Part shown: positions 7,275-42,444 of the stretch, piece by piece | Layout of the letters: each line of letters begins with the position of its first letter | How positions within the stretch are numbered: the first letter of the stretch is position 1 | Virus record (IMG/VR): IMGVR_UViG_3300012347_000185 | Span: 1-42,444 of that record | Origin: a virus | Reading direction: 5' to 3' (one strand) | DNA: 42,444 nt | Position numbers and translations under genes: made by a program | The notes under the pieces: generated by a model | Seen by the model: the letters and a program-made list of their open reading frames with translations, nothing else | Told to the model about the DNA's origin: nothing | Databases searched by the model: none

Positions 7275-7999
7275 GCGAGAAGGCAACTGACTGGGGTGAT
7301 GGGCTGTGGACCCTCCATGCCTTCGAGGAAGAGGCTGCACTGGCCTTCGAGACATCCCTGAACAGGGTCCTTGAGAAGGTCGAGGCGACCAACTTCTTCC
7401 TGGCCTTCTCGGACTCCCAGAACTGGCGTAAGGATGTCCTGCCGACCTACAAGGGTAACCGTGCAGAGACCCGTAAGCCCATGCTCCTCAAGTGGATCAG
7501 GCAGTACGCACAGAAGTACAACTGCATCACCATCCCCACCCTTGAAGGTGATGATGTGTTGGGTATCTGGGCGACCACCAAGAGCAAGCTCGACCCTGTC
7601 CGTGAGTTCATCATTTGCACAACCGACAAGGATCTGAAGACGATCCCCGGCAAGCACTACAACTTTGGACGCGATGAGTTCTTTGAGATCACCGAGCACC
7701 AGGCTGACAAGTGGCACATGGTCCAGACCCTCACAGGGGACACCACGGATGGCTATGCAGGCTGTCCTGGAGTTGGCCCTGTGGGTGCCGAGAAGATCCT
7801 CGCTAAGGCACTGGAGGAGGGCACCCCATGGGCTAACCCTCAGCAGCTCCGAGAGATCTACTGGAAGCACGTTGTTGCTGCCTATTCCAAGGCTGGGTTT
7901 GGTGAAGAGGAAGCTCTGGTCCAAGCCCGTGTTGCCCGTATCCTCCGTGCTGAGGACTACGATGACGTTCTAAAGAAAGTAATTTTATGGACCCCATGA
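7220..7999 (+). CDS. 5'-3' exonuclease (T7 gp6-like)
   Basis: LAFSDSQNWRK...YKGNR, LEGDDVLG, TTDKDLKTIP, TGDTTDGYAG, ARILR...ILWTP parallel T7 gp6 along its length. Confidence 0.88.
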   Translation: MRVALIDADILAYQAAAVSEKATDWGDGLWTLHAFEEEAALAFETSLNRVLEKVEATNFFLAFSDSQNWRKDVLPTYKGNRAETRKPMLLKWIRQYAQKYNCITIPTLEGDDVLGIWATTKSKLDPVREFIICTTDKDLKTIPGKHYNFGRDEFFEITEHQADKWHMVQTLTGDTTDGYAGCPGVGPVGAEKILAKALEEGTPWANPQQLREIYWKHVVAAYSKAGFGEEEALVQARVARILRAEDYDDVLKKVILWTP

Positions 8000-8331: not shown

Positions 8332-8642
8332 AATTCAACGAGTATCAGGACATCGCTCTTTCATTCCGCCTCAAGACTGCCGATGAGCAGTACGCCATGC
8401 TGAACCTGGCAGGCGAGGTCGGTGAGCTTATGTCCCACGAAGCCAAGATGATCCGAGATGGTGGGAACATTGGTATGCACCTAGAGAACATCAAGAAGGA
8501 ACTTGGTGACATCCTGTGGTGCGTCTCTGCAATTGCACGAGACAATGGCTTCGACCTCGATGAGGTGGCCCAAGGTAACATCGACAAACTAACCCGCCGC
8601 AAGGCAAACAATACAATAAAAGGCTCAGGTGACGACCGTTAA
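8328..8642 (+). CDS. mazG: MazG-like nucleotide pyrophosphohydrolase
   Basis: 104 aa. LAGEVGEL...ELGDILW...IDKL..R matches the small MazG/NTP-PPase helical pattern. Confidence 0.85.
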   Translation: MKFNEYQDIALSFRLKTADEQYAMLNLAGEVGELMSHEAKMIRDGGNIGMHLENIKKELGDILWCVSAIARDNGFDLDEVAQGNIDKLTRRKANNTIKGSGDDR

Positions 8643-10614
8643 TCCATCCCTCCGTGCTCAGCTAATTACTCGCCGCACATACAACCGCCCTACCGACGAC
8701 ACTGGTAAGAACTTTGAGACCTGGGGTCAGACTGTAGATCGAGTGATCGATCACCAGCGTTGGCTCTGGGATCGTGCAGGTGCCAGCACTGTGGACAACA
8801 GTGAACTGGAAGAACTCCGCACCCTCATGATGGAGCGCAAAGTTCTCATGTCTGGTAGATCCCTCTGGCTTGGCGGCACTGACGTTGCCAAGAAGCGTGA
8901 GGCCTCTCAATTTAACTGTAGCTTTACAAATGCTGAAACCGTTCAAGATCTTGTGGACATCCTGTGGCTATTACTGCAGGGTTGTGGCGTTGGCTTCTCT
9001 CCTATTGTTGGGCAGCTTACAGGATTTCCTAAGCCAATTTCGGAATTCCAGGTAATCAAATCTACCCGGACTGACAAAGGTGGACAGCAAGGAAACTCCG
9101 AAACCTATGACCCAGCAACCGGAACATGGACCATCACTGTCGGAGACTCCGCAGAAGCCTGGGCCAAGTCCATTGGTAAGCTGGCCGCACATCCATATCC
9201 CGCCCGTAAACTTGTACTCGATTTCTCGCAGATTCGTCCTGCAGGTGAACGTCTGAAGGGTTACGGCTGGATCTCTTCTGGTGATGCTGCCATCGCCAAA
9301 GCATATGAATCAATTTTTCACATTCTTAACCGCCGTGCTGGCAGTTTGCTTACTCGGATTGATATCCTTGATATTGTCAATTGGCTTGGCACTGTACTCA
9401 GCTCTCGACGCTCTGCGGAAATTGCTCTGTTCGCCTATGGTGAAGACGAGTGGCAAGAGTTCGCTGTAGCCAAGAAGGACTGGTGGGTCAATAACATCCA
9501 ACGTGCCCAGTCGAACAACTCCCTGTTGTTCAAGACCAAGCCCCTTCGGACTGAGCTGGAGCACATCTTCGATATGATGGTGGAAGCGGGTGGCTCTGAG
9601 CCAGGCTTCATCAACGGCCAGACCGCAACCAAACGTGCCCCGTGGTTCAAAGGCTGCAACCCCTGTGCAGAGATCCTGCTGGGTAACAAGTCTTTCTGTA
9701 ACCTGACGGAGGTTGATGTTGGAAAATTCAAGGGTGACTCTTCGGGACTTCGTCGAGCAGTCCATATTGCCTCACGTGCAAACTACCGACAGACCTGTGT
9801 GGATCTTCATGACGGAATTCTCCAAGAAGCCTGGCACCTTAACAATGACTTCCTGCGGCTCTGTGGAGTGGGCCTTACAGGTATCGTTCGACGGCCTGAC
9901 TTGGGATCATACGACTACGAAGAACTGCAGCGAACAGCTACTGCCGGGGCTTATTCGATGGCTGATCAGCTTGGGACTCCACGACCTAAGAACATTACCA
10001 CCATCAAACCTTCCGGGACGCTGTCTAAGATCATGGATACTACTGAGGGGGTCCACAAACCCCTAGGCAAGTACGTGTTCAACAACGTGAACTTCTCGAA
10101 GTACGACCCTCTGGTCCCCCTGTGCCGTGCTGCAGGCTACCGTGTGTTTGACAACCCGACTGACTCTGAGTCTGTCCTGATCACCTTCCCGGTGAGCTGG
10201 GATGACGTACCCTTCGACAAGTTCCAGAAGGAGATCAACGGTCGTGAGCATACCCTTGAGGTGAACCTTGAGTCGGCCATTGGCCAGCTCGATCGCTACA
10301 AGATGCTCATGGAATCCTGGTGCCAGCAGAACGTCTCAGCGACCATCTCCTACTCGGTCGATGAGGTCCCGGCCATCATTGATTGGCTGATGGACAACTG
10401 GAACGTGTATGTGGGCGTGAGCTTCCTGTTCCGTGCCGATCCCACAAAGACGGCTGCAGATTTAGGTTATCGTTACCTCCCCCAAGAGGTGGTGACCAAG
10501 GAAGTGTTTGATGAATACGCTTCTCGTATTGCTCCTCTGGAGATTGACCGGGCTAACAGCTTTGACGAGATCCAAGGTGAAGATTGTTCAACTGGGGCAT
10601 GTCCCATCCGCTAA
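8629..10614 (+). CDS. Ribonucleotide reductase large (catalytic) protein, single ORF, class II-like
   Basis: 661 aa, GTG start. LQGCGVGFS, active-site NPCAEI, KPSGTLS, C-terminal Cys pair CSTGACPIR. No separate beta-subunit ORF seen. Class cannot be settled by eye. Confidence 0.8.
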   Translation: MTTVNPSLRAQLITRRTYNRPTDDTGKNFETWGQTVDRVIDHQRWLWDRAGASTVDNSELEELRTLMMERKVLMSGRSLWLGGTDVAKKREASQFNCSFTNAETVQDLVDILWLLLQGCGVGFSPIVGQLTGFPKPISEFQVIKSTRTDKGGQQGNSETYDPATGTWTITVGDSAEAWAKSIGKLAAHPYPARKLVLDFSQIRPAGERLKGYGWISSGDAAIAKAYESIFHILNRRAGSLLTRIDILDIVNWLGTVLSSRRSAEIALFAYGEDEWQEFAVAKKDWWVNNIQRAQSNNSLLFKTKPLRTELEHIFDMMVEAGGSEPGFINGQTATKRAPWFKGCNPCAEILLGNKSFCNLTEVDVGKFKGDSSGLRRAVHIASRANYRQTCVDLHDGILQEAWHLNNDFLRLCGVGLTGIVRRPDLGSYDYEELQRTATAGAYSMADQLGTPRPKNITTIKPSGTLSKIMDTTEGVHKPLGKYVFNNVNFSKYDPLVPLCRAAGYRVFDNPTDSESVLITFPVSWDDVPFDKFQKEINGREHTLEVNLESAIGQLDRYKMLMESWCQQNVSATISYSVDEVPAIIDWLMDNWNVYVGVSFLFRADPTKTAADLGYRYLPQEVVTKEVFDEYASRIAPLEIDRANSFDEIQGEDCSTGACPIR

Positions 10615-37683: not shown

Positions 37684-37895
37684 AAACAGCACTCTTCATC
37701 GAGGACACGCCAGCAGGTCTCAAAACGAAGTTCGTGTGGCAGGCCAATGGCCACATGGACCACGCTGCAGAGTCCATCGCCATGAATGTCATGGCCAACC
37801 TCACCCTGTTCATCAGGGACATGGAGGACAAGAAGCTGGTCAGGTTGGTGAAAGAGGGGCCGGGGGATAACCCTCAGTCTTCTACGGTAACCTGA
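37680..37895 (+). CDS. Early hypothetical protein (71 aa)
   Basis: ATGA overlap with the upstream gene. Confidence 0.5.
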   Translation: MKTALFIEDTPAGLKTKFVWQANGHMDHAAESIAMNVMANLTLFIRDMEDKKLVRLVKEGPGDNPQSSTVT

Positions 37896-38175
37896 GCTGC
37901 AGCTTCATGAAGGCGTCACGGATTGCCGCTGATTCGGATCTGAATGGTCCGTCCTCGTCGAAGTCCGTGACCCTTCCCCTCTGGGTTCTCATCCAGTACC
38001 AGCCGCCATACCTCAGAGGTTCCTCGCTTATACGGGCTGAGTTCCAAACCTTTGTGGTATTTCGACTGGCGAAATAGACCTTCACGCCTGCCTTCTTGAC
38101 AGTCTCAATGAACGCATCTGGTAGTCTCACGCTTTCCTCCGTGAAAATGTTGCCACCAGACAAAAGTGGAGCCAT
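37882..38175 (-). CDS. Hypothetical protein (97 aa from ATG; 102 aa from TTG at 38190), the only credible minus-strand gene
   Basis: Convergent with the early operon (14-nt tail overlap) and divergent from the MarR-like/integrase genes. Not antisense to any + gene. Confidence 0.55.
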   Translation of the reverse strand: MAPLLSGGNIFTEESVRLPDAFIETVKKAGVKVYFASRNTTKVWNSARISEEPLRYGGWYWMRTQRGRVTDFDEDGPFRSESAAIRDAFMKLQLRLP

Positions 38176-38205
38176 GGCAACGATTGTCAATTAGGCATAC
38201 TGCGG

Positions 38206-38235: not shown

Positions 38236-38264
38236 TTGACACAGAGTCGCACCTGAATCATGAT
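38236..38264 (+). promoter_or_regulatory. Candidate sigma70-type promoter TTGACA-N17-CATGAT for the regulator/integrase operon
   Basis: Perfect -35, 17-nt spacer, 4/6 match at -10. About 30 nt upstream of the MarR-like start. Confidence 0.45.
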
Positions 38265-38294: not shown

Positions 38295-38642
38295 ATGGTT
38301 GTGCCCCTGAAGGATGCAATTCAGCTAATTCAAGGGATCTCCCAAATAGAACCGGAGATGCCCTTGCAGCAACTACATGTACTACTCCTCATTGCGGAAG
38401 CAGGGGAGGGGACATCACTTACAGACCTGGCCAAGAAAGCAGGCATAGGTCTAGCAACTGCGTCTCGTTATGTTTCCGCACTAGGCAAACAGAACAGGCA
38501 CAGGCAGGAGGGGCTACTTCTAGTAGAATCCTTCGAGGACCCTATGGAAAGGCGAAAAAAGATAATTCGCCTGACAGGTAAGGGTAAATCCGCACTCATG
38601 AAACTGATAGGAGAACTGAATGCCCATCTACCAAAGGGGTGA
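38295..38642 (+). CDS. MarR-family-like winged-helix transcriptional regulator (candidate repressor)
   Basis: 115 aa. SLTDLAKKAGIGLATASRYVSAL...GLLLVESFEDPMERRKKIIRLTGKG fits the MarR HTH plus wing pattern. Confidence 0.75.
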   Translation: MVVPLKDAIQLIQGISQIEPEMPLQQLHVLLLIAEAGEGTSLTDLAKKAGIGLATASRYVSALGKQNRHRQEGLLLVESFEDPMERRKKIIRLTGKGKSALMKLIGELNAHLPKG

Positions 38643-39657
38643 TGCCTTCATGGTGTCAGTCGGAAGTAAGGGAAACCGCTACCGACAGTCCTTCAAGACC
38701 AAACAGGAAGCTGAACTGGCAGAACTGCAGGCATTGACCCGCCTGAAGGCCTCAGGAAGCCCTCTAGAAGCCTCTACAAGCCCCCCAATTGATGTAGTTA
38801 AGGGCTACACACTCAAGGATGCCCACGACCTCACCTGGAGGCTCTACTGGAAAGGTGACAAGGGCAAGGGTTGCCACGAGGTGACCATCAACTGTGTCTT
38901 TCGGACGATCCCGAGTCAGACACTGCTGACCGATATCACTCCCGCAATGGTCCTTGAGGCCATCGAAGAATGGGAGGATGAGGGCAACTCAGGCTCTACG
39001 GTCAACCGCAAGGTGTCTCACATCTCCAAGATGCTGAACACCGCAGCGGAGCAGGGGTGGATCAATGCTGTCCCCAAGCTGCCCCGCAGGAAGCCTGGCA
39101 AGCACCGCATCCGGTGGATGGCCGAGCAGGAGGAGCTGAGGGTCCTGAACGCCTGCACCCAGTTGGGTCTGGACGATCTGAGGGACTTCATCGTGGTGGC
39201 CATCGACACTGGCTTCCGTAGGTCGGAGCTGCTGGGCCTCGTGTCCAACGACTTCGTCAACGGGATGGTCCAGCTCCACGCTGGGTCCACCAAGAGCGAC
39301 AAGGCGAGGGCTGTCCCGGCTACCCGTAGGGTGTCCGAGATCCTCACCCGCAGGTCTGTCAACAGGAAGCTCTTCGACTTCCAGTTCCACACCCTGAGGG
39401 CACGTTGGCTGTCCCTGAAGTCCCACCTAGGGATGGACGATGACACCCAGTTCGTCATCCACATGCTGCGCCATACGTGTGCATCTCGGATGGTCCAGAG
39501 GGGTGTCAACCTGGCCGTGGTTCAGCAGTGGATGGGTCACTCCAACATCGCCACCACGCTACGGTATGCCCACCTTGCACCTGACAGCCTGGCCATCGGA
39601 CGTGAAGCCCTTGAGCAAGTATCCACAGTTCCTCTCTTGAGGGCTGTGAACTGTTGA
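38620..39657 (+). CDS. int: Tyrosine integrase/recombinase
   Basis: 345 aa with GGAG RBS. Catalytic-domain signature: TGFRRSELLGL (Arg), HMLRHTCASRMVQRG (H-x-x-R), GHSNIATTLRYAHL (Tyr). Confidence 0.9.
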   Translation: MPIYQRGDAFMVSVGSKGNRYRQSFKTKQEAELAELQALTRLKASGSPLEASTSPPIDVVKGYTLKDAHDLTWRLYWKGDKGKGCHEVTINCVFRTIPSQTLLTDITPAMVLEAIEEWEDEGNSGSTVNRKVSHISKMLNTAAEQGWINAVPKLPRRKPGKHRIRWMAEQEELRVLNACTQLGLDDLRDFIVVAIDTGFRRSELLGLVSNDFVNGMVQLHAGSTKSDKARAVPATRRVSEILTRRSVNRKLFDFQFHTLRARWLSLKSHLGMDDDTQFVIHMLRHTCASRMVQRGVNLAVVQQWMGHSNIATTLRYAHLAPDSLAIGREALEQVSTVPLLRAVNC

Positions 39658-39750
39658 AACTGAGTTGTCACAGGCCATTGAGCTGTGACATTTGGACTCC
39701 TTTTAGGGACGTTGTGACAACCTAAGTGATTGGAAATACACGGTAAGTAC

Positions 39751-39808
39751 AGCTTGAGGTGCTAGTAACTTAACCGTTGTGGAGGTTCGAGTCCTCTCGA
39801 CCGCACCA
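39751..39808 (+). other. Candidate attP core: 3' two-thirds of a tRNA-Leu(GAG)-like gene
   Basis: Anticodon loop TTGAGGT (39754-39760), GCTAG stem strand, long variable arm, T arm GGAGG-TTCGAGT-CCTCT, acceptor strand CGACCGC, then A and CCA. There is no matching 5' acceptor strand or D arm upstream. Confidence 0.6.
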
Positions 39809-39830
39809 ATCATCCCTAAGGGAAACTGAA

Positions 39831-39867
39831 GAGAACTCCTTGTAAACCAAGGGGTTCTCTTTCGTTT
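39831..39867 (+). terminator. Intrinsic terminator downstream of the tRNA fragment
   Basis: GAGAACTCCTTG-TAAAC-CAAGGGGTTCTC (12-bp stem with one G-T pair), followed by TTTCGTTT. Confidence 0.7.
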
Positions 39868-40004
39868 GACCCCTATAGTTTCCATATGGAATCAATTGTT
39901 CATAGACAACCCTTGCACTAGGGAAATCTTGTGACAACTTTTGTGTCACAGCTGGGACAACTCCTTGCCACTAGACAACCCTTTCGAACAGAGAGGGAAC
40001 GTCT

Positions 40005-40024
40005 ATGGTTGCACAATTGGATAG
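40005..40024 (+). promoter_or_regulatory. Candidate phage-RNAP promoter, copy 6 (ATGGTTGCACAATTGGATAG)
   Basis: 110 nt upstream of the RNAP start codon. Confidence 0.55.
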
Positions 40025-40081
40025 ACAAGAGAGATCTAGAGATAGACTCTGAGATAATCCTCAAAGATATCTTCTCTAGGT

Positions 40082-40099
40082 TATACTCATGTATACTCA
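40082..40099 (+). promoter_or_regulatory. Tandem TATACTCA -10-like boxes upstream of the RNAP gene
   Basis: TATACTCA at 40082-40089 and 40092-40099. The same TATACTCAC occurs at 36859-36867. No good -35 seen. Confidence 0.3.
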
Positions 40100-40133
40100 C
40101 CTATAGTTACCACCACAACAGGAACCATTAGAA

Positions 40134-42444
40134 ATGCAAAACTTTAACCTTGAAGAAGACTTGATGTCACTCCAGATTCAACTGGAGGAGGGGATGACCC
40201 AACGAGGCGCTGAGAAGTACCTCCGGGATGTCTCCAAGGCCATCTCTGCTGGCCGTGAGGAGTCCACCGCATACGGGACAACCATCCTGTCCCACCGCCT
40301 GGAGACCCTCTCCAAGGCCATCGACGAGTGGAAGCAGGTCACCTCCAAGGGTTCCGCTGGGGTGCGCTCTGCGACCTACCCCAAGGTCAAGGACGTAGAC
40401 AGCCGTTTGCTGGCCTTCCTGACCCTCAAGAGCGTCCTGTCGGGCATCTCCAGCCTCAGGACCCTCCAGTTCGTCGGAGTGGCCATAGGGTCGGCTGTGG
40501 AGGACGAGCTGCGGTTCAGCCTGATCCGGGAGACCGAGCGCAAGGCCTACGAGAAGCTGGTCATCGGTGCCAAGAAGCGCACCTCAGGTCACTACCGCCA
40601 CATGTACGCCGTGCGTCAGGCAGATCGTCTCGAGGATGGCTGGAAGCGGTGGGCCCGGACTGACCGCCTCCATGTGGGCATCAAGCTCCTCGACCTGTGC
40701 ATCCAGTCCGTGGGTCTGGTCGAGCTAACCCACCAGAAGGTTGATAAAGATCAATCGATCAAGTACGTGAAGGCCCTGCCCGAGACCCTCGACTGGATCG
40801 AGAAAAAGAACGAGGTCACCCAGTTCCTGCGCCCCGTCTATGAACCCATGGTCGTGATCCCCCGTGATTGGACCACGCCCTTCAACGGGGGGTACATCAG
40901 CTCCAACATCAAGCCCTTGAAAATGGTCAAGACCAAAAACAAGGCCTACCTAGACGAGCTGAAGAACACCGACATGCCCATCGTCTACGAGGCCGTGAAC
41001 GCCCTGCAGAGGACCGCATGGCAGATCAACAGCCAGGTGCTGGAGGTCATGGAGGAACTGTGGGCCACAGGGTCTGAGATCGCAGGGTTGCCTCCTCGTG
41101 AGGGTCTCCCATTGCCCACCAAGCCTCACGACATCGACTCGAATGAGGAAGCCAAGCGTGAGTACCGCATCAAGGCGGCAAAGATCCACGTTCAGAACCT
41201 CTCCCTGCTGGGCCAGAGGATCGGCTTCAACATGGCTCTGGGAATCGCTCGTCGCTACGAGAAGTTCCGCAAGATCCACATGCCCTACCAGTTGGACTTC
41301 CGTGGTCGGATCTACGCGATCCCCCACCTGAATCCACAGGGGGCAGACTTTCAGAAGGCGCTCCTGCGGTTCGCCAATGGGAAACCGTTGGGGTCTGAGG
41401 GTTGGAAATGGTTGGCAATCCACGGTGCCAACGTTGCAGGCTACGACAAGGCCAGCTTTGAAGACCGTGTCAATTGGGTACAAGACAATGAAGATGAAAT
41501 TATCGCTATCGCATCAGACCCTTACAACAACCGAGGGTGGTGTTCTTCTGTGGGAGATGTGGAGATTGACAAGCCCTGGCAGTTCCTTGCCTTTTGCTTC
41601 GAGTGGGCCGGTTTCACCGAGCATGGTGAGTCGTTCGTATCGAAGCTGCCCGTGGCTATGGACGGTTCATGCTCTGGCATCCAGCACTTCTCGGCAATGC
41701 TACGCGATGAAGTCGGAGGATCTGCAGTCAACCTCGTCCCCAGGGAGCTTCCAGCAGATGTCTACCAGCTCGTGGCCAACAAGGTTATGGAACAAGTTGA
41801 GCACGATATTCTGCACGGCACCGAGGACGAGCTGAAGCACACCGAAGCCGGGGTTGCCTACGTCAAGCAGGGGACCAAGGCCATCGCTGCCCAGTGGAAG
41901 GAGTTTGGGATCACCCGCAAGGTGACCAAGCGATCCGTCATGACGCTGGCCTACGGGTCCAAGGAGTACGGCTTCAAGGAGCAGCTCATGGAGGACATCC
42001 TGCGTCCCGCCAAGCAGTCCAACAAGCCCTTCCCCTTCCAGGGTGACGGCTACCAGGCTGCTCAGTACATGGCCAAGGCGATCTGGGTCTCCGTGAACAA
42101 GGTGCTGGTGAAAGCTGGCGAGGCCATGAAGTGGCTCCAAGGTGCCGCCTCTCTGGCAGCATCTGAGGAACTCCCTGTCCGCTGGTCTACCGCCGTGGGC
42201 TTCCCCGTGATGCAGGCCTATGCCGATCTGGAGAAGCGCAAGGTCAAGACCGCGATCAACGGGAAGCTGGTGTACCTGACCATGTACCAAGACAAGGACA
42301 ATCTGGACCGCCGCAAGCAGTCCTCAGGGATCGCCCCCAACTTTGTCCACTCCTGCGATGCAGCACACATGATGCTGACCGTGACGAGGGCCAAGCAGGC
42401 AGGCATCGACAACTTCGCCATGATCCACGACTCGTTCGGGACCA
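40134..42444 (+). CDS. T7-like single-subunit RNA polymerase, N-terminal and central part (runs off the window; continues at base 56)
   Basis: MQNFNLEED... Contains YQLDFRGRIY, PWQFLAFCFEW, MDGSCSGIQHFSAMLRD, TRKVTKRSVMTLAYG, HDSFGT. Joined with 56..258 it gives an 837-aa protein. Confidence 0.95.
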   Translation, partial: MQNFNLEEDLMSLQIQLEEGMTQRGAEKYLRDVSKAISAGREESTAYGTTILSHRLETLSKAIDEWKQVTSKGSAGVRSATYPKVKDVDSRLLAFLTLKSVLSGISSLRTLQFVGVAIGSAVEDELRFSLIRETERKAYEKLVIGAKKRTSGHYRHMYAVRQADRLEDGWKRWARTDRLHVGIKLLDLCIQSVGLVELTHQKVDKDQSIKYVKALPETLDWIEKKNEVTQFLRPVYEPMVVIPRDWTTPFNGGYISSNIKPLKMVKTKNKAYLDELKNTDMPIVYEAVNALQRTAWQINSQVLEVMEELWATGSEIAGLPPREGLPLPTKPHDIDSNEEAKREYRIKAAKIHVQNLSLLGQRIGFNMALGIARRYEKFRKIHMPYQLDFRGRIYAIPHLNPQGADFQKALLRFANGKPLGSEGWKWLAIHGANVAGYDKASFEDRVNWVQDNEDEIIAIASDPYNNRGWCSSVGDVEIDKPWQFLAFCFEWAGFTEHGESFVSKLPVAMDGSCSGIQHFSAMLRDEVGGSAVNLVPRELPADVYQLVANKVMEQVEHDILHGTEDELKHTEAGVAYVKQGTKAIAAQWKEFGITRKVTKRSVMTLAYGSKEYGFKEQLMEDILRPAKQSNKPFPFQGDGYQAAQYMAKAIWVSVNKVLVKAGEAMKWLQGAASLAASEELPVRWSTAVGFPVMQAYADLEKRKVKTAINGKLVYLTMYQDKDNLDRRKQSSGIAPNFVHSCDAAHMMLTVTRAKQAGIDNFAMIHDSFGT
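42390..42444 (+). repeat. 55-nt terminal overlap identical to bases 1-55 (circular-assembly closure)
   Basis: Direct comparison of both ends shows every base identical. Confidence 0.98.

Follow-up and report, generated by a model that had tools for sequence, protein, structure and literature searches.

The DNA examined here is a viral stretch of 42,444 nucleotides (nt), positions 1 to 42,444 of the IMG/VR record IMGVR_UViG_3300012347_000185 (the window, by which we mean this whole stretch at its full length), and our concern is a short non-coding segment between its integrase and RNA polymerase genes that copies the 3' part of a transfer RNA gene and very probably contains the core of the phage attachment site (attP). 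The ends of the window share the same 55 bases, as an exact direct repeat at 1-55 and 42390-42444, and the record is thus a circular assembly with a true genome length of 42,389 bp; a related contig (locus L009) that is continuous across the junction supports this circularity. Because the genome is circular and the record linear, the gene for a T7-like single-subunit RNA polymerase (837 amino acids, + strand) is split by the window ends, running from 40134 to 42444 and on across the junction to 258; the open reading frame (ORF) of the circularised sequence matches the Pfam families RNA_pol (E=2e-103) and RPOL_N (9e-18). The long ORFs of the window lie on the + strand. With its single-subunit polymerase, its + strand ORFs and its 42,389-bp circle, the phage is an Autographiviridae-like (T7-like) podovirus. 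The order of the module studied here is MarR-like regulator, integrase, putative attP, terminator-like hairpin, candidate phage promoter and RNA polymerase, which is the order published for integrase-bearing phages of the T7-like type (PMC10134795; bioRxiv 10.1101/410191; PMC8776855).

The integrase gene occupies 38620..39657 on the + strand and encodes 345 amino acids, with matches to Pfam Phage_integrase (PF00589, E=6e-23) and to the PHROG 1 integrase family (E=2e-53), and with weak matches to SAM-like and arm-DNA-binding domains (Pfam) at its N-terminus. The closest solved structure to its catalytic domain is the HP1 integrase (1aih, E=2e-13), and the catalytic positions align between the two: R (TGFRRSE), K (STKSDKARAVP), HxxR (HMLRHT), H (GHS) and Y (LRYAH). 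On this alignment the product is a predicted tyrosine recombinase with intact catalytic residues. Directly upstream, and overlapping the integrase start by 23 nt, is a gene for a MarR/IclR-like winged-helix regulator of 115 amino acids (38295..38642, + strand), which is matched by Pfam HTH_IclR (E=2e-7), by MarR and MarR_2 (at 1e-4) and by PHROG 9665, transcriptional regulator (E=4e-21), and whose counterpart in L009 is 71% identical. A consensus scan places a sigma-70-like promoter (TTGACA, 17-nt spacer, CATGAT; 10/12 positions) ahead of both genes at 38236..38264 on the + strand; such a match is weak evidence alone. In phage LUZ100 the MarR-integrase operon has its host promoter P3 at the corresponding position (PMC10134795).

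The segment of interest begins 93 nt past the integrase stop, in the non-coding interval between the integrase end (39657) and the RNA polymerase start (40134). Over 39751..39808 (+ strand) it is an exact copy of nt 30-87 of a host tRNA-Leu(GAG) gene, that is, of the last two-thirds of an 87-nt gene, with 58/58 identity to 13 independent bacterial sequences. Its segments are AGC-TTGAGGT-GCTAG-TAACTTAACCGTTGT-GGAGG-TTCGAGT-CCTCT-CGACCGC-A-CCA: three nucleotides of the anticodon-stem 5' strand, the 7-nt loop with the anticodon GAG (39754-39760), the anticodon-stem 3' strand, a long variable arm (39766-39780), the T arm (39781-39797), the acceptor 3' strand (39798-39804), and finally the discriminator A with CCA (39805-39808). 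In alignments and BLAST comparisons, the window and the host gene agree from the third base ahead of the anticodon loop up to and including CCA, and outside this block the sequences are unrelated. A first-pass annotation of this DNA had proposed just such an arrangement, namely an integrase followed ninety-odd nt after its stop by a tRNA fragment reaching from the GAG loop to CCA and acting as a candidate attP that would rebuild the host tRNA. Its placement of the integrase and its boundaries for the fragment proved accurate to the base, and the exact bacterial tRNA match of at least 30 nt by which it proposed to judge the idea exists and extends to 58 nt.

That annotation also held that the D arm and the 5' acceptor strand are missing, and that the fragment is no part of a complete phage tRNA, and we agree on both counts. 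ARAGORN calls no complete tRNA gene in the whole window, Rfam detects no tRNA in 39500-40100 even with E up to 10, and the 32 nt upstream of the fragment agree with the host tRNA 5' half at 9/32 positions, which is the chance level. A complete phage-encoded tRNA gene, with a 5' acceptor strand and a D arm, is on these grounds ruled out. The same results bear upon the idea that the fragment acts as an RNA in its own right, whether as a processing signal, as a decoy, or as a molecule charged or recognised by tRNA enzymes. The retention of a perfect T arm and of an acceptor 3' strand with CCA would accord with such a role; the fragment has, however, no 5' acceptor strand or D arm with which to pair, exact likeness to the host would be needless for a structural mimic, and no RNA family in Rfam matches it, so that we regard an RNA function as extremely unlikely.

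The host genes from which the fragment could have been copied were sought in two ways. The 50-nt stretch 39756-39805, taken as an exact pattern, was looked for in 185,579 species (GTDB), each represented by a single genome; it matched 8 genomes, and in all 8 ARAGORN finds a complete 87-nt tRNA-Leu(GAG) at that place. A 55-nt core was scanned against 241 million metagenome records, and the 6 matches comprise 5 complete tRNA-Leu genes in host context (the bacterial attachment site, attB) and one phage relative (attP). Four of the matching genomes are Alsobacter species or metagenome-assembled genomes (MAGs) of that genus, and a Rhodoblastus, a Methylobacteriaceae MAG and a Hyphomicrobiales MAG complete a set that belongs wholly to the Hyphomicrobiales; the eighth genome is an unclassified alphaproteobacterial MAG. 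Exact matches thus occur only in Hyphomicrobiales or in unclassified Alphaproteobacteria of high G+C content, and they point to Hyphomicrobiales-type Alphaproteobacteria as the probable hosts. The first-pass annotation had looked to marine cyanobacteria besides other bacterial genomes; the cyanobacterial part has to be given up, as the exact matches are all alphaproteobacterial and none is cyanobacterial. The sample accessions ERR3489835, SRR1302010 and GCA_013565675.1 yielded nothing on habitat. A cyanobacterial host, or membership of the group of cyanophage P-SSP7, is likewise rejected, given that no cyanobacterial tRNA matches and that the phage database search returned no nucleotide similarity between the window and any cyanophage; P-SSP7 is for that reason an analogue and not a relative.

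The most informative evidence on the function of the fragment comes from related phages. In the relatives L009 and L010 the integrase is 84% identical to that of the window and the DNA about 82%, yet the core is identical at 55/55 positions, while the 24 nt to its left are nearly unalignable between the window and either relative. By our own arithmetic, which treats the core as an unconstrained 55-mer, the chance of 55 unchanged bases at 82% identity is about 2e-5. An integrase search together with a degenerate core pattern gathered about 25 distinct related contigs (among loci L009-L049), and every one of these carries a tRNA-Leu(GAG) 3' fragment some 100 nt past the integrase stop; the tRNA 5' half is in none of them. 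The fragments fall into at least 8 alleles that differ almost solely in the variable arm (for example CCCC-GAAA-GGGG, GGGA-GAAA-TCCC, CCTG-TAAC-AGGG and GGGC-GAAA-GCTC), the eight arms being TAACTTAACCGTTG, CCCCGAAAGGGG, GGAGAAATCC, GGGAGAAATCCC, CCTGTAACAGGG, GGGCGAAAGCTC, GGGGTAACTCCC and GGGGTAACACCC, and the clade has two acceptor variants, CTCTCGACC and CTCTTGACC. In the variable-arm stem each of the four pairs (4/4) varies on both strands, pairing holds in 91% of cells, and 0/500 shuffles reach the covariation score. As the fragment is unable to fold as a tRNA and its stems covary nonetheless, the alleles must have been copied from functional host tRNA-Leu(GAG) genes; presumably each allele matches the tRNA-Leu(GAG) of a separate host lineage.

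These observations allow a further alternative to be weighed, in which the fragment would be a dead relic: host tRNA sequence that some past imprecise excision brought in and that has since lost its function. For LUZ100 and the pelagiphages it has been proposed that tRNA sequence was acquired when excision was imprecise (PMC10134795), and no attL, attR or prophage (attL and attR being the left and right junctions of an integrated phage) was found in any of our searches, both of which would suit a relic. Such a relic, however, would drift as its flanks do, and the core is instead unchanged at 55/55 positions between phages that are about 82% identical elsewhere. Moreover, its position, its left boundary at the anticodon loop and its right boundary at CCA are constant in about 25 contigs; it switches among 8 intact alleles with covarying stems; and throughout the clade the integrase keeps an intact reading frame and its catalytic residues. 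A relic is, in our judgement, quite improbable. We conclude that 39751-39808 is, with high probability, the attP core of an integrase-bearing T7-like podovirus, as the geometry of the locus, the intact integrase, the 55/55 core in relatives and the allele switching all favour the candidate attP of the first-pass annotation.

On this reading of 39751-39808 as the attP core, the integrase would pair the core with the identical stretch of a host tRNA-Leu(GAG) gene, the attB, and would exchange strands inside the identical block, most likely in or beside the anticodon loop. Because the block is identical throughout, any crossover within it leaves the tRNA unchanged. Several relatives have A or G in place of the host C at the last base of the anticodon-stem 5' strand before the loop, and this mismatch implies that the required identity, and with it the crossover, lies from the loop rightwards. 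In the attL (predicted sequence ...GGTAGACGCGCTAGC + core + ATCATCCCTAAGGGAAACTGAAGAGAAC), the 5' part of the tRNA would come from the host, and the 3' part, together with the hairpin described below, from the phage; since the phage copy matches the host at every base between the anticodon stem and CCA, this junction would amount to an intact tRNA-Leu gene. From this junction the prophage would extend, RNA polymerase gene first and integrase gene last, to a duplicated tRNA 3' fragment, the attR (predicted sequence ...GGAAATACACGGTAAGTAC + core + host sequence). The copying of a 3' tRNA part is the standard way in which such phages insert into a tRNA gene without breaking it, and the window is an ordinary and well-supported example.

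The rebuilt tRNA gene would also gain a putative terminator from the phage. Folding identifies an intrinsic-terminator-like hairpin of 15 bp with the loop UAAAC and a U tract at 39828..39867 (+ strand; stem-loop 39828-39862), which starts 20 nt past CCA, within the position range of the native terminators behind host tRNA genes. The stem-loop has a predicted energy of -29.9 kcal/mol and a z-score of -4.9, and 0/200 shuffles fold as well. The sequence directly 3' of the hairpin is TTTCGTTT; the U tract is interrupted (UUUCGUUU) and lies partly within the stem, and in relatives the tract is better (UUUUUGUUUU). The hairpin is kept in L009, L010 and L023, where the changes preserve pairing. A simple consensus terminator scan missed it on the + strand, as the T run is partly taken up by the maximal stem. 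The first-pass annotation had spoken of a strong terminator at 39831-39867; the strength of the hairpin bears this out, while the interrupted U tract and the negative + strand scan temper it. In the free phage the hairpin would end the regulator-integrase transcript ahead of the polymerase gene, and a comparable role, that of stopping a transcript before the polymerase gene, has been proposed for terminator T4 of LUZ100 (PMC10134795).

On both sides of the core there are repeats of the kind an integrase with an arm-binding domain might recognise. The left (P) arm, at 39662..39726, has the inverted repeat TGTCACAG-N9-CTGTGACA (39666-39690) and GTTGTGACAACCTAAG (39711-39726), and the right (P') arm, at 39903..39983, has TAGACAACCCTT twice (39903 and 39972), the inverted repeat TGTGACAAC-N5-TGTCACAG (39930-39951) and GGGACAAC (39953). 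The motif TGTGACAAC has three exact copies in the 42-kb window, all of them here (39664 on the - strand, 39713 and 39930 on the + strand), against about 0.3 expected by chance; further GACAAC copies occur in the arms, among them the two of TAGACAACCCTT. The arm layout is conserved in relatives with integrases down to about 61% identity. We regard the TGTGACAAC/GACAAC motifs as candidate sites for the N-terminal arm-binding domain of the integrase, for the MarR-like regulator, or for both. In the model described for temperate T7-like phages, MarR sites flank the promoter that precedes the polymerase gene (PMC10134795 and its reference 14), and in published models the regulator would hold the phage RNA polymerase gene silent. 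As a separate observation, immediately beyond the integrase stop Roseobacter phage CRP-804 (L050, 2590-2625) has clustered TGTGACA repeats and Bordetella phage BB8 (L051, 2715-2740) has an inverted repeat, TGTGGCACA/TGTGCCACA, both of the same motif kind as the P arm of the window.

Just upstream of the polymerase gene, at 40007..40026 on the + strand, there is also a candidate promoter for the phage polymerase, with the motif GGTTGCACAATTGGATAGAC. The form TTGC[AC]CAATTGGA occurs in 6 copies against 0.76 expected, all on the + strand and mostly intergenic (window positions 280, 2135, 11301, 33484, 36967 and 40009). A motif of the GGTTGCACAATTGGATAGAC type precedes the polymerase genes of phages BB8 and BOESR1 as well, and the placement directly upstream of that gene is shared with LUZ100. 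The GGTTGCACAATTGGATAGAC/TTGC[AC]CAATTGGA motif is most likely the promoter used by the phage's own RNA polymerase.

Several observations weigh against the proposal that this phage integrates into a host tRNA-Leu gene. At the 8 reference loci (the tRNA-Leu genes of the 8 matching genomes) a blastn search with the whole window finds only the 58-61 nt tRNA match, and tblastn finds no integrase or regulator homologue in loci that extend 1-5 kb beyond the tRNA; the prophage-like remnants that the first-pass annotation suggested might lie beside the matching tRNA are not there, and the tRNA block is all that is shared. The core scan of the metagenome records revealed no attL or attR. All 16 IMG/VR contigs with the core have a phage-type backbone and no attL or attR, and the best 120 integrase clusters and best 120 RNA polymerase clusters are all on contigs of at most 43.2 kb, none of them chromosomal. 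For integrases that occur on several contigs, further look-ups of context gave phage neighbourhoods only. Furthermore, the sequences that carry attB (L001-L008, L022, L024-L027) have 65-72% G+C, as against 53.5% for the phage, a gap of 12-18 points that is unusually wide for a phage and its host. In the nearest cultured relatives by integrase, CRP-804 (Roseobacter), BB8 (Bordetella) and BOESR1 (Ralstonia), no recognisable tRNA fragment lies between the integrase and RNA polymerase genes.

The last two points bear chiefly on the host. The gap in G+C means that no genus can be named, and calls for caution on Alsobacter or Rhodoblastus as host; the expectation of the first-pass annotation that the match would identify the host lineage is thus borne out at the level of Hyphomicrobiales-type Alphaproteobacteria and fails at that of the genus. 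The cultured relatives, as they are without the tRNA fragment, offer known hosts that are of no use in calibrating the host call. As to the remaining points, integration by this phage is something that we infer, because no attL, attR or prophage has been found; the absence of junctions from the databases is compatible with integration that is rare or transient.

The core may have a second use. Three loci, L023 (on a contig labelled marine metagenome), L037 (on the same contig as L011) and L039 (on the same contig as L012), the latter two from IMG/VR, each have, in the interval from the integrase gene to the RNA polymerase gene, two tandem cores that differ in allele and are separated by 1.1-1.2 kb; in L023 the cores are at 7323-7377 and 8495-8549. 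The inner segment has, in order, the variable arm of allele 2, its right arm with the promoter-like motif, cargo ORFs and a second left arm. Across the three loci the inner right arms are 93-97% and the inner left arms 89-97% identical, the outer arms follow three different resident phage backbones, and the cargo ORFs differ among the contigs, none having a Pfam match. Both boundaries of the inner segment fall within the 13-nt block TTGAGGTGCTAGT, that is, the anticodon loop and the adjoining stem, which is the footprint to be expected of an attP-bearing circle inserted into a phage attP near the anticodon loop. The arrangement suggests that a cassette of about 1.2 kb, itself without an integrase gene, was inserted site-specifically; tandem cores may alternatively have arisen through homologous recombination, or through a two-phage cointegrate that later underwent a deletion.

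It could be asked on this basis whether the site is mainly a hot spot for recombination between phages, through attP-by-attP exchange and the capture of cassettes, rather than a site for insertion into a bacterial chromosome. The three backbones that share a cassette with boundaries in TTGAGGTGCTAGT speak for this, as does the fact that chromosomal integration was never seen in the searches made. What exchange between phages leaves unexplained is the presence of perfect tRNA 3' copies, continuing to CCA and with paired allele-specific stems, which matching to a host attB predicts; moreover, the two roles are not mutually exclusive. That the site exists mainly for exchange between phages seems to us improbable. 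That the attP core, besides being a chromosomal integration site, serves phage genomes as an active hot spot of site-specific recombination with one another is a possibility that we put forward tentatively, and are inclined to doubt. If true, the variable-arm 'barcode' would be swapped among at least 8 alleles, and a cassette of about 1.2 kb with changeable cargo and its own complete attP, made up of a P arm, a core of allele 2 and a P' arm, would have been inserted into the attP of three resident phages, by a logic like that of integron gene cassettes in which the phage integrase mobilises them in trans. Phages with two attP sites would then be aimed at two different host tRNA-Leu alleles.

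Haemophilus influenzae phage HP1 has a tRNA-Leu gene as its integration target and crosses over near the anticodon stem-loop. It is a P2-like myovirus of a gammaproteobacterium, unlike the T7-like phage described here, and the match of its integrase (PDB 1aih) to that of the window is limited to the catalytic domain and is of low identity.

Closer parallels are found among the T7-like phages themselves. The T7-like cyanophages P-SSP7 and S-TIP37 have an attP downstream of int that is identical to a host tRNA-Leu (PMC8776855). The first-pass annotation had invoked P-SSP7 as a phage for which integration into tRNA-Leu had been proposed, and while the analogy is sound the word is outdated, as integration by T7-like cyanophages has been shown experimentally, with int and attP both required and with events that are rare and transient (PMC8776855). 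Lysogens or intact prophages of these cyanophages were never obtained (PMC8776855), and in this they resemble the present phage, for which no intact prophage is seen either. They differ in that the core of P-SSP7 is 42 bp (bioRxiv 10.1101/410191) as against 58 nt here, in the phylum of their hosts, the phage of the window matching Alphaproteobacteria of the order Hyphomicrobiales, and in the MarR-like regulator that lies directly upstream of the integrase in the window. Pelagiphages of the HTVC019P type are nearer in some respects, as they too are T7-like with a non-coding attP between int and the RNA polymerase gene, and have alphaproteobacterial hosts with attB in tRNA genes that include tRNA-Leu (bioRxiv 10.1101/410191). 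Pelagiphage cores, however, are 11-46 bp and often fall centrally in the tRNA or at its 5' end, whereas the window has a single 58-nt 3' part reaching to CCA; some pelagiphages disrupt the tRNA gene or bring a complete phage tRNA, whereas here the gene is predicted to be rebuilt exactly; and pelagiphage attL and attR have been found by PCR and in GOS reads (bioRxiv 10.1101/410191), whereas none was found for this phage.

Pseudomonas phage LUZ100 and Agrobacterium phage Pasto share with the window a MarR-like regulator directly upstream of the integrase, as they are described in PMC10134795 and its reference 14. In phages of this type, on the same description, the regulator and integrase are apparently co-transcribed from a host-type promoter, and a terminator precedes the RNA polymerase gene (PMC10134795). 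In LUZ100 the integrase is preceded by a complete tRNA-Leu gene, and the phage has no defined attP (PMC10134795), in contrast to the partial tRNA downstream of the integrase in the window; the similarity of LUZ100 and Pasto to the phage studied here is at the level of protein families only.

With regard to the rest of the genome, nucleotide similarity to deposited phages is short and weak, is confined to Ralstonia, Bordetella, Roseobacter and Celeribacter podoviruses, and falls in the integrase, DNA polymerase, ribonucleotide reductase and capsid genes. A 661-amino-acid ORF at 8629-10614 resembles, at the nucleotide level, the gene for class II ribonucleotide reductase in Celeribacter phage P12053L, which is a frequent auxiliary gene in marine podoviruses. 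Just upstream of the regulator-integrase operon is an ORF of 102 amino acids on the - strand (37882-38190), the one minus-strand ORF of this region that was seen to be conserved; it has no Pfam or PHROG match, and counterparts of about 81-82 amino acids lie on the minus strand at the matching position in L023, L029, L045 and L046. Its location would suit a lysogeny-related gene read against the lytic direction.

The result leaves the current understanding of such attP/integrase modules unchanged. Its value lies rather in the exact tRNA match, which provides a culture-free clue to the host of a large uncultured clade of 42-kb T7-like phages, one with hundreds of related integrase and RNA polymerase clusters in metagenomes, and in the series of variable-arm alleles, which could be a barcode that ties each phage variant to a host lineage. 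With the phage of the window, one more lineage joins the mounting evidence that a strictly lytic life is not universal among T7-like phages.

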